Shown: positions 8,079-15,635, counted from the first letter of the stretch. The stretch is 37,422 nt of DNA from Candidatus Micrarchaeia archaeon (GCA_049976305.1 JBMFIM010000008.1:1-37422), one strand, 5' to 3'. The notes: generated by a model from the sequence alone, not told the origin. Numbers and translations: made by a program.

Positions 8079-9284
8079 TTAATTCCTATTATCCACTATT
8101 CCAAACCCTGAAAAGTTGCCATCTGAGAGCAGAATGAACCTACCAAGTTCAGGATACTTCGCAAAAGAAGAATAGGCTATGGGCTTGCTAAGCTCAAGCT
8201 CGCATTCTGCAGCAAAAATCTTGCCATGCGTGTAAGGCTTTCCTGTAAGTATATCTGTCTTCCTTCCAATCTTTCCTATTTTGCAGCCTAGCAAAACGCC
8301 ATTGAAGTTAATCTGCAGCTTGCCGGAAAGGCTAGATACAGCAAGGACCTTGGCATGTAGTCTCTTGCCAATGCTTATATCTGCATCATTGCTTGCTAGC
8401 ACTTTGCCCTTTGGCTCCTTTACATCTACACTCAGCTTGGCAGCTATGTTTTCACCTTTTTTCGCCTGTCCGCTTCTCTTTCCTTTGACAAGCATTGTAA
8501 GAAGCCTGACCTTCTTGTTTTCAGGTAGCAATAGAAGGTGCTGCTTAGAAGAGAGCTTGCCAGAGATCACGCGCCCTGCTATGAAGCTTTCACGCTCCCC
8601 TTCAACAGTACCGTTAAGCAGAACTACTGCCTGCCCTTCAGGATCATGGCTCCTCTTATGCAATCTCTCGTGTAGGATTTCGAGCAAGGGCTTACCTTTG
8701 TACCATCGCATATTTTTTGATAGCACAACAAGATTTTCGCCGGTGTACGCAGAAACAGGTACAAATACAAAGTTGTTTATGCCCACTGCCTTAAGATACG
8801 TTTCCACTTCTTCTTTTATCTTGTTGAAAGCCTGCTCAGAGTAGCCAACCGCGTCTAGCTTGTTTACCGCTACAATGAAGAAATCTATCCCCAGCATGTT
8901 AGCTATGAAAACATGCCTCCTAGTCTGGTCTTTGAAGCCTTCGCCCGCCTTTGCGGAAACAACCAATACTGCAGAATCAGCATAAGAGGCTCCTGTTATC
9001 ATGTTTTGTATGAGCTCCTTGTGACCTGGCACGTCTATGAACTCATAGGCAGCGCCTTTGTACTTGAGCTCTGCCCTTGTAGTATCTAGCGTAAGGCCGT
9101 ATGCCCTTTCTTCTGAAAAGCTATCTAGCAGGAAGGCAGGCTCAAATTTTTTGCCTAGCCTTTCGCTTGCTCTTTTCGCTTCTGCTATTCTTGACTCGAA
9201 TACCGAATTGGTTTGTATGAGAAGCTGACCTATTAGCGTAGATTTGCCATGGTCCTTATGCCCCAACACAACTATCCTATCCAT
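8079..9284 (-). CDS. cysN: Sulfate adenylyltransferase subunit 1 (CysN-like EF-1alpha-type GTPase), no fused APS kinase
   Basis: GHKDHGKST, LLDSFSEER..GLTLDTT, DVPGH, NMITGAS, NKLD, VSAYTGEN, LGRFIL; directly downstream of cysD. Confidence 0.82.
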   Translation of the reverse strand: MDRIVVLGHKDHGKSTLIGQLLIQTNSVFESRIAEAKRASERLGKKFEPAFLLDSFSEERAYGLTLDTTRAELKYKGAAYEFIDVPGHKELIQNMITGASYADSAVLVVSAKAGEGFKDQTRRHVFIANMLGIDFFIVAVNKLDAVGYSEQAFNKIKEEVETYLKAVGINNFVFVPVSAYTGENLVVLSKNMRWYKGKPLLEILHERLHKRSHDPEGQAVVLLNGTVEGERESFIAGRVISGKLSSKQHLLLLPENKKVRLLTMLVKGKRSGQAKKGENIAAKLSVDVKEPKGKVLASNDADISIGKRLHAKVLAVSSLSGKLQINFNGVLLGCKIGKIGRKTDILTGKPYTHGKIFAAECELELSKPIAYSSFAKYPELGRFILLSDGNFSGFGIVDNRN

Positions 9285-9306
9285 GACCAGCGCCTATACA
9301 ATTTTG

Positions 9307-10095
9307 CTACATATATCCGAGAGCCCTAAGCCTCTGCATGATATAAGCCTTTTCCTTGTCCTGCTCTCTGCCTGATCTTTCTTCAACATTGGTTGTTTTT
9401 AGTTCATTTATTATGTCATCTACTGTTTTTGCGTCTGATTTTATTGGCACCGTACAATGTGTGCAGCCAAGGCTTCTATAGCGGTAGCCATTCCTAGAGA
9501 AGTACAGAGGGTTTACAGGTATATGCTCCCTTTTGATGTAGCGCCAAATGTCTATTTCATTCCAGTCCAAAAGCGGGTGCACCCTAACGTGCCCTCCTTC
9601 CTCTATCTTTGAAGAGTAGTCATCCCAAAGCTCTGGTGGCTGATTCTTGTAGTTCCACTTGAAGTTCTTGTCCCTGACGCTCATGTACCTTTCCTTAGCC
9701 CTTATCGCGTGCTCGTCTCTTCTTATCGACACTATTAAAGCTTTAAACTTGTACTTTGCCATTACCTTCTTCAGTGCTTCAGTCTTATTGGCCCCGCAAC
9801 AGCTAAACCCAGAAATCTCAGGTTTTATCTCGCTTTTCGCCACTATCAGGTTGAGCTTCCATTTTTTAACGAGGTCGTCCCTGAATTTATAGGACTCAGG
9901 AAAATCTATGCCGTTATCAATGTGAATTACTGGAAAAGGCACCTTGCCGAGAAAAGCCTTCCTTGCAATTGCAAGCATTGTAGTGCTGTCCTTTCCCATG
10001 CTCCAAAGTGCGGCAATATTGCCAAACTTTTCCTTTGCTTCTCTCATTATGTATATGCTCCTCTCTTCCAATTCATCAAGATCTTGCTCTATCAT
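9307..10095 (-). CDS. cysD: Sulfate adenylyltransferase subunit 2
   Basis: LDELEERSIYIMREA start, PP-loop WSMGKDS, RRDE..RAKER, NQPPELW, RVHPLLDW, YRSLGC, ERSGREQD, C-terminal RLRALGYM. Confidence 0.92.
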   Translation of the reverse strand: MIEQDLDELEERSIYIMREAKEKFGNIAALWSMGKDSTTMLAIARKAFLGKVPFPVIHIDNGIDFPESYKFRDDLVKKWKLNLIVAKSEIKPEISGFSCCGANKTEALKKVMAKYKFKALIVSIRRDEHAIRAKERYMSVRDKNFKWNYKNQPPELWDDYSSKIEEGGHVRVHPLLDWNEIDIWRYIKREHIPVNPLYFSRNGYRYRSLGCTHCTVPIKSDAKTVDDIINELKTTNVEERSGREQDKEKAYIMQRLRALGYM

Positions 10096-10424: not shown

Positions 10425-10650
10425 GTGCCTTAAGCTTTTCTATCACGCTATCTTTGCTTGAGCTTCCTTTGCTCTTTAGATCACTTACCATTTCACGCAG
10501 GATGAATGTAACATAATCTGAAACGGACGAGAAGCCAGTATCTTTTATCTGCTCCTGCAGTTTTTCGAATAGGGGCCTCGGAATAGTGATTGTAGTATAC
10601 TTTCTACCTTCTTCGCTCTCCTTGGCTTTTGCCCTTGCTGCTTGATTCAT
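10411..10650 (-). CDS. Ribbon-helix-helix (CopG-like) regulator with C-terminal LKALGY tail
   Basis: YTTITIPRPLFEKLQEQIKDTGFSSVSDYVTFILRE is a beta-strand plus two helices of RHH type; ends VIEKLKALGYV. Confidence 0.85.
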   Translation of the reverse strand: MNQAARAKAKESEEGRKYTTITIPRPLFEKLQEQIKDTGFSSVSDYVTFILREMVSDLKSKGSSSKDSVIEKLKALGYV

Positions 10651-10761
10651 AATTTAATTGAAATACATTAAAATATAAAAAGGTTTGCATAGAAAGAGAG
10701 CAGCACTGTACGCAGAAAAGACCGAAAAAATTTAAATTATGTTTGGACTTAATGAATAAGC

Positions 10762-11040
10762 ATGGATGCAGATGCAGAGTACGTGCTGCAACATGTCTCA
10801 AGGCTTGCAAGGCTCCAGCTAACCGACGAAGAAAGGCAGAAGTTTGCTAAGCAGATACAAGACGTACTTAATCTATTCAACAAGGTCGCAAGTGCAAATG
10901 TTGAAGGCGAGCCGGCGTATCACTGCATCGAAGCAGAGAATGGACTAAGGCCTGACAAGCCCGTAAAATTTGACTGGGATCCGCTTTCAAATGCAAAGCA
11001 TGTTGAAGGAAAATACATAAAAAGTCCAAAGATTGTTTAG
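10762..11040 (+). CDS. gatC: Asp/Glu-tRNA amidotransferase subunit C
   Basis: HVSRLARLQLTDEE...LRPD...YIKSPKIV; precedes gatA. Confidence 0.92.
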   Translation: MDADAEYVLQHVSRLARLQLTDEERQKFAKQIQDVLNLFNKVASANVEGEPAYHCIEAENGLRPDKPVKFDWDPLSNAKHVEGKYIKSPKIV

Positions 11041-11058
11041 GGTGAGCTTATTGAATAC

Positions 11059-12462
11059 ATGCGCACTTTAAAGGAGCATATTGAAGCAGTAAAATCAGGT
11101 AGCATAGACCTTGCTGATTTTTCTGCAAAAGTTGTCGAAGAGGCAAAGCGCGTGCAAGCAGCCTATGCTCCCTTCATTTCCGTAGCTGAATCTATAAAGT
11201 TTGAAGTAACACCACAAAGCTTGCTTCCTGGAGTACCCGTGGCAGTAAAAGACAACATCTGTACAAAAGGCATGAGAACTACTGCTGGATCGAAGATTCT
11301 TGAAAACTATGTACCACCATTTGATGCGACTGTTGTGGAAAAGGTAAAGAAGGAGGGAGCAGGCATAGTCGGCAAAACCGCAATGGACGAATTTGGGTTT
11401 GGAACTTTCTCTACAAACTGTGCGTTTGGCGTGCCTAAGAACCCTTTAGATCCGGAGCGTTCATGCGGTGGTAGCAGTGGCGGATCTGCCGGGGCTGTAG
11501 CTGCGTTCAAGCTGCCGATAGTATCGATAGCTGAATCTACTGGTGGCAGTATAACATGCCCTGCAGCATTTACAGGCACAGTAGGCATAACTCCAACCTA
11601 TGGCCTCGTATCAAGATGGGGGCTTATCGATTACGCCAACTCGCTTGACAAGATAGGCACCATAGGAAAGAGCGTTTACGATGCTGCACTTTTGCTATCT
11701 GCTATTGCAGGATACGATGAAAAAGATGCCACTTCTCTGCGAACGCAGAATACAGATTATGCAGCCTTTGCAAAGCCTGACGGAAAGAAGCTAAGGATAG
11801 GCCTGCCAGAAGAATATTTCTCAAGCGCGGTAGACAGTGGCATAATCAAAGAAGTAGAAAGGCTTGCAGACAGGCTAAACTCGCTAGGCTTCGAATTGGA
11901 GCGGATCTCTCTTCCTTCTACAGAACTTGCAATACCCACATACTACATAATTTCAATGTCTGAAGCTTCTACAAACCTTGCGAAATTCAGTGGCCTAAGG
12001 TACGGCCTACAGCTGGAATTTGATGAAAAGCAGAACATAGAGGAATACTTTACTAGGGTAAGGACTGAGGGCTTTGGAGAAGAAGCAAAGAGAAGAATAA
12101 TACTTGGCACGTTCACAAGAATGGCTGGTTACAAAGACCGGTACTATCTCAAGGCTCTGAAAATAAGAAAAAGGATAATAAATGAGTTCAAGCAGGCATT
12201 TGCAAAGGTCGATGTACTGCTTGCTCCGTCAATGCCCATAATGCCGCCAAAGTTCAGCGAAATAGAAAAGTTAGAACCTGCACAGGTATACATGATGGAC
12301 ATACTTACCGTCGCGCCGAACATGGCCGGCATGCCCACAGTTGCTTTGCCTATAGGTCACATAAACGGCTTGCCTGTTTCAGTTCAGGTAATAGCGGACC
12401 ATCTGCAAGAAGGCAAGGCCATTCAAATGGCCAGCATAATAGAGGGATTGAATGGAAGATGA
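11059..12462 (+). CDS. gatA: Asp/Glu-tRNA amidotransferase subunit A
   Basis: Amidase signature VAVKDN, GKTAMDEFG, GGSSGGSA, TGGSITCPA; EASTNLAKFSGLRYG; GFGEEAKRRIILGTF. Confidence 0.96.
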   Translation: MRTLKEHIEAVKSGSIDLADFSAKVVEEAKRVQAAYAPFISVAESIKFEVTPQSLLPGVPVAVKDNICTKGMRTTAGSKILENYVPPFDATVVEKVKKEGAGIVGKTAMDEFGFGTFSTNCAFGVPKNPLDPERSCGGSSGGSAGAVAAFKLPIVSIAESTGGSITCPAAFTGTVGITPTYGLVSRWGLIDYANSLDKIGTIGKSVYDAALLLSAIAGYDEKDATSLRTQNTDYAAFAKPDGKKLRIGLPEEYFSSAVDSGIIKEVERLADRLNSLGFELERISLPSTELAIPTYYIISMSEASTNLAKFSGLRYGLQLEFDEKQNIEEYFTRVRTEGFGEEAKRRIILGTFTRMAGYKDRYYLKALKIRKRIINEFKQAFAKVDVLLAPSMPIMPPKFSEIEKLEPAQVYMMDILTVAPNMAGMPTVALPIGHINGLPVSVQVIADHLQEGKAIQMASIIEGLNGR

Positions 12463-13867
12463 AGTAATAATAGGGCTTGAAGTGCACGTCAGGCTCTTGA
12501 CAAAAACAAAGTTATTCTGCTCGTGCGAGAACAAGGAAGTAGAAGAGCCCAATACGAACGTCTGCCCTGTCTGCATGGGATTTCCTGGCACAAAACCTAT
12601 GCTGAATGAAAAAGCGATCGAGCTCGCCACGCTTGCTGCCATGGCGCTTAATTGCAAAATCAACAAAACCTTCTCCTTCTCTAGGAAAGTTTATTTCTAC
12701 CCAGACCTGCCAAAGAACTTCCAAATAACGCAATATGATGCGCCGATAGGCGTAGAAGGAGAGCTTATGCTTCTGAAAGCGGGAAGGAAAATAAGAATAA
12801 GAAGAATACATGTAGAGGAAGACCCTGCAAGGCTTGTGCATGTTGGCGGCGACATTACTTCAGCTTCGTACGCCCTTGTTGATTACAACAGATCAGGCAT
12901 GCCGCTCATTGAGATTGTTACAGAACCAGACCTTAAAACACCTGCAGAGGCTAGAGAGGCTGTAGCTACGCTTGCGCTAGTGCTAGGCCACATAGGCGTG
13001 TGCGACCCCTCTGCAGAAAGCGCAATAAGGGTTGATGCAAACATATCGCTCGCTGGTGGAAAGAGGGTCGAGATAAAGAACATAACAGGCTTTGCAAACG
13101 TTGAAAAGGCGCTTTTGTTCGAAATTGCTAGGCAAAAACAGCTTCGTGCAATGCATATGGAGGTTGAGCAGGAAACAAGGCATTTTGACGAGATAAAAAA
13201 GACCACATCTTCGCTTAGGACCAAGGAAAGTGAAGAAGATTACGGCTACATATTCGAGCCGGATTTGCTGACATACCGCATCACAGACTCTATGCTAGGT
13301 TCTCTTGCACCGGCCTTAGAGGAGTTGCCAGGTAAAAGAATAAGCAGACTTATTAGCAAATACCAAATACCTGAAAACTATGCACGTATAATCGTATACG
13401 AAGGCAAAAACTTTGCAGACTTCTTCGAGCACACTGCGGACATATTCGGAGACAGAATTATGCTTGCAAAATGGTCAGTTGGCGACTTGCTTAAATGCCT
13501 CAACTATAATAGGATAGATGTTTCGCAGGCAAAGATAACACCACAATCCTATGCAGAATTTCTTTCAATAATAAAGAGCGGAGAAATAACCGAAAGACTA
13601 GGAAAGGAGCTTATAAAGGAGTTTGTAGCAACTGGCACAGATCCAAAGAGATTAGCAGAAAGATATAAAAATGAAAATTTTGAAAATTTAGACTTGACAC
13701 AGGTTATAGAAGCAGTCATCAAGGAAAACCCTAAAGCAGTAGAAGACTATAGAAAAGGAAACCAGAAGGCATTGCAGTTCCTTATAGGCAAGGTGCTTGA
13801 AAAGACCAACAATACTGCTGACCCCAAAAAGGTAAAGGATATGCTTAATGCCCGAGTAGCTCAGTAG
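12452..13867 (+). CDS. gatB: Asp/Glu-tRNA amidotransferase subunit B
   Basis: IGLEVH, KLFCSC, CPVCMGFPG, YFYPDLPKNFQITQ, HVEED, DYNRSGMPLIEIVTEPD, RVDANIS, YqeY-like tail; stop codon lies inside tRNA-Asn. Confidence 0.97.
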   Translation: MEDEVIIGLEVHVRLLTKTKLFCSCENKEVEEPNTNVCPVCMGFPGTKPMLNEKAIELATLAAMALNCKINKTFSFSRKVYFYPDLPKNFQITQYDAPIGVEGELMLLKAGRKIRIRRIHVEEDPARLVHVGGDITSASYALVDYNRSGMPLIEIVTEPDLKTPAEAREAVATLALVLGHIGVCDPSAESAIRVDANISLAGGKRVEIKNITGFANVEKALLFEIARQKQLRAMHMEVEQETRHFDEIKKTTSSLRTKESEEDYGYIFEPDLLTYRITDSMLGSLAPALEELPGKRISRLISKYQIPENYARIIVYEGKNFADFFEHTADIFGDRIMLAKWSVGDLLKCLNYNRIDVSQAKITPQSYAEFLSIIKSGEITERLGKELIKEFVATGTDPKRLAERYKNENFENLDLTQVIEAVIKENPKAVEDYRKGNQKALQFLIGKVLEKTNNTADPKKVKDMLNARVAQ

Positions 13868-13922
13868 GTAGAGCGACCGGCTGTTAACCGGTAGGTCGTC
13901 AGTTCGAGTCTGACCTTGGGCG
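13850..13922 (+). tRNA. tRNA-Asn (anticodon GUU), overlapping the last 18 nt of gatB
   Basis: GCCCGAGTAGCTCAGTAGGTAGAGCGACCGGCTGTTAACCGGTAGGTCGTCAGTTCGAGTCTGACCTTGGGCG; anticodon loop CT-GTT-AA; discriminator G. Confidence 0.96.
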
Positions 13923-13969
13923 CTCCCTGCTTAACTTTTAAATATTAAAGGGGATATAGTCGTGATAAC

Positions 13970-15283
13970 ATGTTGCGGGACACGTACATAAGCCAGGTGT
14001 CTACAGAGCCTGGGAAGGAGTATACAATCGGAGGCTGGATATCAAGGCTCAAAGAGCTGAAGAATGCAAGATTCATATGGGTGTCTGACAAGACTGGCAC
14101 CATACAAATAAGCCTAGTAAAGGACAAGGTAGATGCATCATTGTTTGAAATGTTTGACAATCTCAATCTGCATGATTTTGTAGTGGTAAAAGGAAAAGTA
14201 CCAGAACAAATAATGGCAAAGAATTTCAAAGAGCTTATACCAACGAAGATCACAGTAGTGGGCAAGGCTGAGAAGCCCCTGCCCATAGACATGTCTGGCT
14301 TGGTAGAGTCTGAGCTTGAGACGAGGCTCGACTGGCGTTCTATAGCACTAAGAAACAAAAATTTGATGTTCGTTCTCAAGGCAGAATCGAGCCTAATAGA
14401 AGGAATGGAAAACTACCTTAACAAACACGACTTTACAATAGTCTTCACTCCTAGCATAATTGGCGTAGCTGCAGAGGGAGGCTCAGAGGTATTCCCCATC
14501 GTTTACTATGACAAAACTACATATTTGAGGCAGGACCCTCAGCTCCACAGACAGCTTCTCATGGTAGCAGGCCTTGACAAGATCTACGAGATCGGGCCAA
14601 GCTGGAGGGCAGAGCTTAGCCACACTCCAAGGCATCTTTCTGAACATAGAACCTGCGCGGCTGAGATATCTTTCATAGAAGACGAACACGATGTTATGAA
14701 GCTAGAGGAGGAGCTTGTCCAGGCAGCTCTAAAGAATGTAGTTGATAGGCATAAGGATGAACTCGATGAGCTGGGAATAGAGGTCACAGTGCCTAAAACT
14801 CCTTTCCCAGAACTAAAATTTCCAGAGATCTATGACTTGCTTGAGGAGCTTGGTAAGAAGCTTGAACATGGAGAGGACTTAGACCACGAATCAGAGCTTT
14901 TGCTTGCAAAGTATGTTAAGGAGAAGTACAACAGCGAATTCTTCTTTGTAAACAGATTCCCTTACAAGGTAAAGCCGTTCTATGTCATGCGCGTGGATGA
15001 CGAGCCTGAGTATGCAAGAAGCATAGACCTTATCTATAAAGGCGTCGAGCTCAGCTCTGGAGGCCAAAGAGAGCATAGGTATGAGAAGATAATAGAGCAG
15101 GCAAAGGAGAAGGGGCTTAGCGAAGGCAGCTACATGTGGTTTGCCAAATTCTTCAAATATGGCGCTCCGCCACATGGCGGCTTCTCCATAGGCATTGAGC
15201 GCACTGTGATGCAGATGCTTAACATGCAGAACATACTTGAAGCCGCTGCTTTTCCGAGAACCCCTGAAAGAACAGTCCCTTGA
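13970..15283 (+). CDS. aspS: Archaeal-type aspartyl-tRNA synthetase (discriminating status uncertain)
   Basis: OB-fold N-terminus; AAEGGSEVF, YLRQDPQLHRQ, EIGPSWRAE..HTPRHLSE, ELSSGGQREH, YGAPPHGGFSIGIER, FPRTPER. Confidence 0.95.
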   Translation: MLRDTYISQVSTEPGKEYTIGGWISRLKELKNARFIWVSDKTGTIQISLVKDKVDASLFEMFDNLNLHDFVVVKGKVPEQIMAKNFKELIPTKITVVGKAEKPLPIDMSGLVESELETRLDWRSIALRNKNLMFVLKAESSLIEGMENYLNKHDFTIVFTPSIIGVAAEGGSEVFPIVYYDKTTYLRQDPQLHRQLLMVAGLDKIYEIGPSWRAELSHTPRHLSEHRTCAAEISFIEDEHDVMKLEEELVQAALKNVVDRHKDELDELGIEVTVPKTPFPELKFPEIYDLLEELGKKLEHGEDLDHESELLLAKYVKEKYNSEFFFVNRFPYKVKPFYVMRVDDEPEYARSIDLIYKGVELSSGGQREHRYEKIIEQAKEKGLSEGSYMWFAKFFKYGAPPHGGFSIGIERTVMQMLNMQNILEAAAFPRTPERTVP

Positions 15284-15359
15284 CCATCAACTACTAGGCT
15301 TGCTAGAATCGGAGAAATAGAAATAAGAAATTAATCAGAGAAGTTATGCTGTGTATAGT

Positions 15360-15635
15360 ATGCAAGAAGAAACGAATGTTGACGAAAAAACGAAAAATCT
15401 CAACAGAGCAAGGCAGTCCCTTATTGAGGAACTGCAGGCAATGATGTGGTACGACGAGAGAATAAGCGCAACGAAAGACAAGGAGCTAGCAGGCATACTT
15501 GCCCACAACAGAGATGACGAAAAGGAGCATGCAACGCTGCTGCTAGAATGGCTTAGAAGGAACGATCCAGCTCTGAAAAAGGAGCTCGAGGAGATACTCT
15601 TCAGCAACAAGCAATTCAAAGATCTCTGGGACTAA
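15360..15635 (+). CDS. Encapsulated-ferritin-type (EncFtn) ferritin-like protein without cargo-loading tail
   Basis: RARQSLIEELQAMMWYDER...ILAHNRDDEKEHATLLLEWLRRND matches the EncFtn two-helix ferroxidase pattern; ATG 15360 is the likely start. Confidence 0.88.
   Translation: MQEETNVDEKTKNLNRARQSLIEELQAMMWYDERISATKDKELAGILAHNRDDEKEHATLLLEWLRRNDPALKKELEEILFSNKQFKDLWD

Follow-up and report, generated by a model that had tools for sequence, protein, structure and literature searches.

A gatB gene that ends inside the gene for its substrate tRNA-Asn in Micrarchaeota, with a GatB core position encoded by the tRNA

Introduction

Protein-coding genes that end inside a downstream tRNA or tmRNA gene are known from bacteria. 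The survey of Hudson, Lau and Williams (2014; PMC4131195) reports 250 overlaps with an upstream coding sequence on the same strand among 115,660 bacterial t(m)RNA genes. In the same text, the smpB-ssrA overlap of Carsonella, which is found in half of the strains, is discussed as possible feedback, and the SmpB extensions are described as apparently random. Similar to smpB-ssrA as described there, the gatB gene examined here ends inside the downstream gene of its own RNA partner, and maturation of that RNA should yield a non-stop mRNA. It differs from the bacterial cases that the text presents in being archaeal, in recurring across lineages, and in having RNA-encoded residues at a conserved structural position.

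A second relevant system is the secG-leuU transcript of E. coli, where secG mRNA decays within 30 s of the release of leuU by RNase P (Mohanty and Kushner, PMC2241853). It is an mRNA-tRNA co-transcript split by RNase P, as is proposed for the locus studied here, and fast mRNA decay is also the likely fate of the gatCAB message. In contrast to gatB-tRNA-Asn, that account describes the pair without an overlap, secG and leuU have no functional relation to each other, and their processing was shown experimentally.

In mitochondria, stop codons are completed by polyadenylation: the cut mRNA ends in U or UA, and the poly(A) tail completes UAA. Where mitochondrial tRNA genes overlap, they share 1-6 nt, and the missing bases are restored by 3' editing (PMC4284800). 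As described, they resemble the gatB case in that compaction has made neighbouring genes overlap, and an intact downstream tRNA is obtained at the cost of the upstream RNA. In gatB, however, 18 nt would be lost, and the remaining AAT end cannot be completed to a stop by the addition of A.

On the enzyme side, the account of GatCAB in PMC2811023 places Leu472 of Staphylococcus aureus GatB in the hydrophobic core of the tRNA-binding tail domain. The archaeal GatCAB of that account shares with the present one a YqeY-like tail, binding of the tail to the D-loop region of the tRNA, and a G1-C72 tRNA-Asn substrate. Unlike it, the enzyme described here has the C-terminal turn of its last helix, including the equivalent of Leu472, encoded by the substrate tRNA gene.

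A search of titles and listings, mainly in the open literature, returned no report of a gatB/tRNA-Asn overlap or of this gene cluster, and nothing on such an overlap stands in the available parts of PMC4033280 and PMC3239211; a complete list of overlaps, should one accompany PMC4131195, may affect this novelty.

The gatCAB-tRNA-Asn-aspS locus

The locus lies in a window of 37,422 nt, the whole stretch of DNA analysed, from a Candidatus Micrarchaeia archaeon with a very small genome (GCA_049976305.1, JBMFIM010000008.1:1-37422). Its features are collected in Table 1. The gatB stop codon lies 18 nt inside an intact tRNA-Asn(GUU) gene: the GatB C-terminus reads ...DMLN-ARVAQ-stop, and codons 467-471 together with TAG are tRNA nucleotides 1-18. 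This had been claimed in the first-pass annotation, and the open reading frame, ARAGORN (tRNA-Asn(gtt), 13850-13923) and Rfam (RF00005, 13850-13922) agree on it. GatB passes the TIGR00133 and PRK05477 cut-offs, and gatC and gatA adjoin it. By sequence, the case belongs to the known class of same-strand CDS/tRNA overlaps, since a Pfam-positive coding sequence has its stop inside a valid downstream tRNA gene; the structural dual coding described below is the new part.

Table 1. Features of the cluster, with positions in the window
Feature	Position	Strand	Remarks
BRE/TATA-like site, likely gatCAB-tRNA promoter	10725..10740	+	about 30 nt before gatC start; matrix score 12.2, top within 10550-14000
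gatC	10762..11040	+	TIGR00135 above cut-off
gatA	11059..12462	+	TIGR00132 above cut-off
gatB, 471 aa	12452..13867	+	TIGR00133 and PRK05477 above cut-off; last five codons and stop within tRNA gene
Two TATA-like sites inside gatB, candidate internal promoter	13657..13688	+	186 and 170 nt before tRNA; scores 11.4, 11.8
tRNA base -1 (T), third base of gatB codon 466	13849	+	RNase P cut would fall 3' of T
tRNA-Asn(GUU)	13850..13922	+	G1-C72, G73, extra A17 in D-loop; CCA not encoded
18-nt dual-coding overlap	13850..13867	+	Ala-Arg-Val-Ala-Gln-stop = acceptor 5' strand, U8-A9, D-stem, D-loop
Codon GTA, Val469, tRNA G7-U8-A9	13856..13858	+	at S. aureus GatB Leu472 position
gatB stop TAG, tRNA U16-A17-G18	13865..13867	+	tRNA nt 16-18
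T-rich/TATA-like stretch 3' of tRNA, possible terminator and/or aspS promoter	13930..13945	+	matrix score 6.2
aspS, archaeal-type aspartyl-tRNA synthetase	13970..15283	+	TIGR00458 and PRK05159 above cut-off

Among named records, the nearest GatBs come from Micrarchaeaceae. An identical 18-nt overlap is found in all six genomes of the Micrarchaeaceae genus to which the source belongs, with GatB identities of 69-96%, so that the conservation which the annotation had proposed to check in relatives is present, and assembly error as the source of the overlap is ruled out. The aspS gene of the cluster encodes the sole AspRS found in the source genome. The score of the stretch between the tRNA and aspS barely exceeds the 95th percentile of random sites, and is similar in five of the six genus genomes.

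Elsewhere in the window, a CysD-like and CysN/EF-1alpha-like gene pair lies beside prenyltransferase genes (8079-10095, minus strand), and a gene for an encapsulin-cargo-like ferritin follows aspS (15351-15635, plus strand).

A tRNA-encoded residue of the GatB core

The GatB model aligns over residues 1..471 to residues 1..474 of 3ip4_B (Z 37.4), with the cradle, helical and tail domains full, and in the AlphaFold model residues 458-470 lie in one helix. Ala467 aligns to S. aureus residue 470, which makes Val469 the equivalent of Leu472. The protein has a complete YqeY-like tail, and the hydrophobic residue at its Leu472 position is Val469, encoded by the tRNA. Of 80 GatBs whose genes do not overlap a tRNA, 79 carry L, I, V, M or F in the corresponding column (+11); one later-added GatB (L286) has Thr there.

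The tRNA base U8 is near-universal, and a codon of the form N-U-A always specifies Val, Leu or Ile. Among the 21 overlaps found across the module, 10 enter the last GatB helix, six of them in the source genus. In each of these 10 the overlap starts nine residues past the DP motif, with ARV, ARL, ARI or ASV, and puts Val, Leu or Ile at +11. The remaining 11 begin at +13 or later, and the core residue stays upstream of the tRNA. What is new here is that tRNA nucleotides 7-9 encode the GatB core residue Val469, and that all 10 helix-entering overlaps share one register.

With the trait columns left in the alignment, eight register rows fell into one group (SH-aLRT 89). When the trait columns were removed and 10 rows were used, the best tree needed four changes, but the AU test does not reject a single clade (p 0.136). 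The structural register may have arisen once or up to four times independently; whether it had one origin or several, the overlap register is, as far as the alignment goes, filtered by protein structure. The dual coding of Val469 explains the conservation of the overlap without regulation. The overlap is not undone by a simple new stop, because a stop before the tRNA would delete the core residue. By extrapolation from S. aureus, loss of Val469 would be expected to damage the GatB of the source genome.

The overlapped tRNA and its second copy

The overlapped gene scores 72.4 bits against RF00005 (gathering threshold 29, model positions 1-71), the top score among the four tRNAs of the window. 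The full cloverleaf, GUU anticodon, G73 and acceptor pairing are intact. Across the genus, one of the 73 tRNA positions varies, namely position 15 (G or A), which is synonymous for Gln in gatB; just upstream of the tRNA, 45 of 50 gatB third positions vary among the six genomes. Nucleotides 19-73, which are non-coding, are invariant in all six (55 nt), while 38 of 40 nt downstream vary. This comparison indicates that the overlapped tRNA is under purifying selection as RNA outside the overlap. In two of the six genomes (L003 and L005), A15 stands opposite C48, a mismatched Levitt pair that is synonymous in gatB.

The annotation had asked whether this is the only tRNA-Asn gene. It is not: a second lies on contig C9 of the source genome, and a second copy is present in all six genus genomes. 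AsnRS is above cut-off in five of the six, the exception being a genome that is 75% complete. Two types of tRNA-Asn can be told apart by the D-loop, which has an extra A17 or none. In a sample mostly collected via gatB, A17 occurs in 43/43 tRNA-Asn genes at gatB loci and in 0/27 at other loci. A tRNA-first search of 151 Micrarchaeota genomes placed all 16 A17-type genes within the order behind gatB; 6 of 22 A17-type genes lie away from gatB, all of them outside the order.

A spare copy is found in 14/17 genomes with an overlap versus 8/17 with a gap, which is a hint only, given the relatedness and incompleteness of these genomes and a search pattern that misses copies with introns. In G039, an assembly of one contig with an 18-nt overlap, the 40 Rfam matches include no tRNA-Asn besides the overlapped gene, and Phe, His and Cys tRNAs are also absent from them; redundancy is thus not required for the overlap.

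Introns, one or two per gene and in part at non-canonical positions, interrupt several of the tRNA-Asn genes linked to gatB (L063, L066, L076, L090, L286, L292, L294 and L297). In L076, the gatB stop is supplied by a D-loop insertion. In L087, from Bathyarchaeia, two tandem tRNA-Asn genes follow gatB, and the first is overlapped by 10 nt.

Transcription and processing

The BRE/TATA matrix used to score promoters was built from the other tRNA genes of the source genome in a leave-one-out scheme. The overlapped tRNA-Asn scores -0.5 (rank 35 of 38), and 45% of 5000 random positions score as high. The Phe, Leu and Gly tRNAs of the window score 11.5, 8.3 and 4.5, which bears out the remark in the annotation that these three have TATA boxes, and this tRNA no clear one. 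A polycistronic tRNA-Leu scores -1.8, similar to the overlapped tRNA-Asn. For most other tRNAs of the source genome the best site is 24-40 nt upstream; no promoter was found at -40..-24 of the overlapped tRNA in any of the six genus genomes (scores -5.7 to 1.8). TATA-like sites at -67 and -18 were rejected as the tRNA promoter, being not conserved or too close for an intact 5' end. Leaderless transcription of the tRNA, free of RNase P, is ruled out by the presence of RNase P and the lack of a TATA at the usual distance.

The source genome encodes RNase P RNA (RF00373 above cut-off) and Rpp29. The base before the tRNA, a synonymous site, is T in all six genus genomes across Asn, Ser and Asp codons, and is among only five invariant third positions of 50. 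C-ending Asn, Asp and Ser codons are usually commoner in these genes, yet T is kept at -1, and C occurs at this base in only 1 of 40 junctions. A C-1/G73 pair is described as promoting miscleavage by RNase P (PMC3035440). The T at -1 fits an RNase P substrate with a 5' extension, whether the extension comes from a gatCAB transcript or from an internal one. The tRNA is probably cut from the gatCAB transcript, as the annotation had proposed; the missing promoter at the usual distance in all six genomes, the presence of RNase P and the T at -1 point this way.

Such a cut should leave a non-stop message for a truncated GatB. The mRNA would end in a complete AAT codon, and added A residues would give no in-frame stop. 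The annotation had expected the loss of the stop, which stands as a prediction; the consequence would be stronger than it claimed, as Val469 would also be lost. Pelota, a factor described as acting in non-stop ribosome rescue (PMC6514570), is present in the source genome (TIGR00111 above cut-off) and could serve such a message.

Distribution of the module and of the overlap

The gatC-gatA-gatB-tRNA-Asn-aspS cluster is common to DPANN and Bathyarchaeia genomes. In a GatB tree of 97 rows, tRNA-Asn adjoins gatB in 35 of the 44 rows of one clade (SH-aLRT 95) and in none of the 53 rows outside it. The clade holds Micrarchaeota, Aenigmarchaeota, Bathyarchaeia, one Marsarchaeota and one record labelled Patescibacteria. 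The latter (L091) has an archaeal-type gatB-tRNA-Asn nested in Bathyarchaeia rows, which reflects mislabelling or transfer.

After removal of duplicates there were 40 distinct loci (one gap row being from the unpublished genome G038), with 19 overlaps of 10, 15, 18, 24 or 42 nt and 21 gaps of 0-175 nt. Five new genomes added two overlaps and three gaps, bringing the stop inside the tRNA in 21/45 loci and upstream of it in 24/45. Some gap loci are close relatives of overlapping loci, and the overlap state requires at least five changes on starred branches of the GatB tree. By these counts, the overlap comes and goes across the module. The gatC-gatA-gatB-tRNA-Asn cluster is an old module for the indirect route to Asn-tRNA with a tRNA-Asn of its own, which in most cases is a second copy in the genome.

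The GatB of the source genus groups with Aenigmarchaeota-type proteins and not with GatBs from the rest of its family; a transfer of the module may lie behind this. Other genera of the family (L014-L024) have a distant GatB type with no adjoining tRNA, often followed by a longer AspRS (about 600 aa).

Other genes that end inside tRNAs

Background was taken from four Micrarchaeota genomes, with all tRNAs of G000, the source genome, and about 30 each of G022, G035 and G039. At 42 other same-strand gene-tRNA junctions within 60 nt, five overlap, four of them Pfam-supported. The fifth, a 157-aa ORF in G022, was not counted as real, since it has no Pfam match and is antisense to a helicase. Three G000 ORFs of 100-117 aa that overlap Leu-TAG, Ser-GCT and Thr-TGT tRNAs from upstream on the same strand were left out of the background as unverified. 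Overlap is thus commoner at gatB-tRNA-Asn (21/45) than at background junctions (4/42); when the count is limited to gaps of at most 17 nt, the background rises to 4/14. Overlap is an ordinary minority state, and the gatB excess comes partly from a tight junction and two early UAGs in the tRNA.

As a control, the promoter-less rpoD-tRNA-Leu junction shows 0/30 overlaps, with gaps of 0-23 nt, six of them exactly 0; these are 30 loci of 39 matches, and the comparison is confounded, as tRNA-Leu has no early stop codon. This junction (G000 contig C1:79294-79965; loci L153-L182) often carries tRNAs with short introns, which ARAGORN miscalls as Phe, Arg or Ser.

Among the background overlaps, a gene for a class I/II aminotransferase extends 10 nt into tRNA-Val(UAC) (G000 contig C20:106-1323, minus strand; locus L350), and this tRNA has a good TATA site (8.4) inside the upstream gene. 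The tRNA-Val(UAC) genes of G022 and G035 lie 5 and 3 nt downstream of ORFs of similar length. Also in G035, a gene of the metallo-beta-lactamase fold that matches a tRNase Z Pfam family (L268:1563-2474, minus strand) extends 10 nt into tRNA-Val(GAC). This tRNA lacks a promoter-like site, and the upstream gene may encode a tRNA-processing enzyme and overlap one of its substrates. On the opposite strand, tRNA-Glu(CUC) of G000 (contig C6:37946-38018) has a 19-nt overlap with the 3' end of a 1936-aa ORF.

Origin and consequences of the overlap

The explanation preferred here, with a probability of about 0.6, is tight packing that became locked in. The tRNA would lack a promoter of its own, and RNase P would cut it off the 3' end of the gatCAB transcript. 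Since there would be no promoter that had to be kept, the spacer would shrink, and repeated deletions would have carried gatB into the tRNA, where early stops are available at nucleotides 8-10 and 16-18. In the source genus, the deletion would also have removed the last turn of the final GatB helix. This was presumably viable because, by alignment, the N-U8-A9 codon of tRNA nucleotides 7-9 lands on the conserved core residue in this register. The junction would now be locked, as an earlier stop would lose the core residue and the tRNA bases are not free to change.

Full-length GatB would come only from uncut transcripts, and a cut message would code for a 466-residue GatB without a stop or the core residue. 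Cutting probably follows rounds of translation and ends the life of the message, with Pelota clearing stalled ribosomes. Given the fast decay of secG after the release of leuU, translation followed by cutting needs no special control. Coupling of enzyme and tRNA levels would be a by-product. Co-transcription, cleavage at this site and this sequence of steps are what we infer. Counting against locked packing are a strong TATA-like site 170-186 nt upstream of the tRNA in 3/6 genomes, the excess of overlaps at gatB, and the rpoD-tRNA-Leu junction, which never overlaps.

The upstream site might be a tRNA promoter inside gatB, giving a leader of about 150 nt. The supply of tRNA would then be independent of gatCAB mRNA, and the overlap would matter little beyond occasional cutting of the message. 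The two sites at -186 and -170 are the best of 34 bins in the source gatB, sites scoring 11 or more occur in ORF interiors at only 0.03 per kb, and G004 and G001 have similar sites (10.0 and 10.3; -170..-189 over the three genomes); the good promoter of the overlapped tRNA-Val(UAC) also lies inside its upstream gene. Against this, the same place scores -1.2 in G005, 4.3 in G003 and 4.0 in G002, three genomes in which the overlap is identical; the stretch is AT-rich, variable and not conserved, and lies outside the usual promoter distance. An internal promoter is therefore judged unlikely. Far less probable still is that this tRNA copy is rarely matured, and owes its persistence chiefly to its roles in coding and as a 3' structure of the gatCAB mRNA, with translation supplied by the C9 copy. 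The second tRNA-Asn in 6/6 genomes, the lack of a promoter at the usual distance and the A15-C48 mismatch in 2/6 would suit such a role; the invariant non-coding part of the tRNA amid variable downstream DNA, its intact anticodon, G73 and acceptor pairing with a high Rfam score, the base -1 kept as in an RNase P substrate, and G039, with no other tRNA-Asn found, do not.

Another proposal is that the overlap is a selected either/or switch. Ribosomes finishing gatB would shield the tRNA from RNase P, and their clearing would release it and leave a non-stop message for a crippled GatB, keeping a tRNA that could be mischarged with Asp in step with GatCAB. The recurrence of the overlap at the gatB junction, the loss of a core residue upon cutting in 10 loci, the use of A17 in the stop, and an Asn codon as the last before the tRNA in 4/6 genus genomes all speak for it. 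However, that codon is replaced by Ser or Asp in 2/6, overlap length varies, A17-type tRNA-Asn also occurs away from gatB outside the order, and much of the excess is tight spacing, to judge from the tight-junction background. A ribosome footprint is large enough to cover the tRNA 5' end when terminating at gap 0, so that shielding needs no overlap. Unlike in a programmed non-stop switch (arfA-like, or as proposed for smpB-ssrA), 24/45 module loci, some of them close relatives, lack the stop-removing arrangement, which is thus not kept wherever the module is kept. The second tRNA-Asn and AsnRS would dilute any coupling. We regard a selected switch as improbable. A wider version, in which the tail and its substrate tRNA are co-encoded and coupled, is doubtful, if slightly less so: U8 would supply the core residue and A17 the stop, in a register reached up to four times, and the RNase P cut would leave a message for inactive GatB, so that tRNA release is gated by gatB translation and mischargeable tRNA-Asn stays in step with the amidotransferase.

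The annotation had gone further than these data allow in two respects. It saw a possible device coupling enzyme and substrate levels, against which stand the second tRNA-Asn with AsnRS, the upstream stops in 24/45 loci, and the unrelated genes that also end inside tRNAs. It also held that one transcript yields either GatB or tRNA, but under locked packing a transcript can be translated first and cut later.

Implications

Annotation pipelines that forbid CDS/tRNA overlap would falsely truncate GatB in these DPANN genomes. The catalogued coding sequences that end in tRNA genes usually gain dispensable residues at their end; in GatB, by contrast, a position conserved for structural reasons is occupied by a residue that the tRNA encodes. 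The universal tRNA base U8, read in an N-U-A codon, can replace a hydrophobic core residue and lock an overlap, in the one register that 10 loci share. If the coupled reading were true, it would represent archaeal control by non-stop mRNA that matches tRNA-Asn to its amidotransferase. The locus would also let one see, in a natural setting, how non-stop messages created by RNase P are dealt with in archaea, and whether rescue through Pelota suffices.
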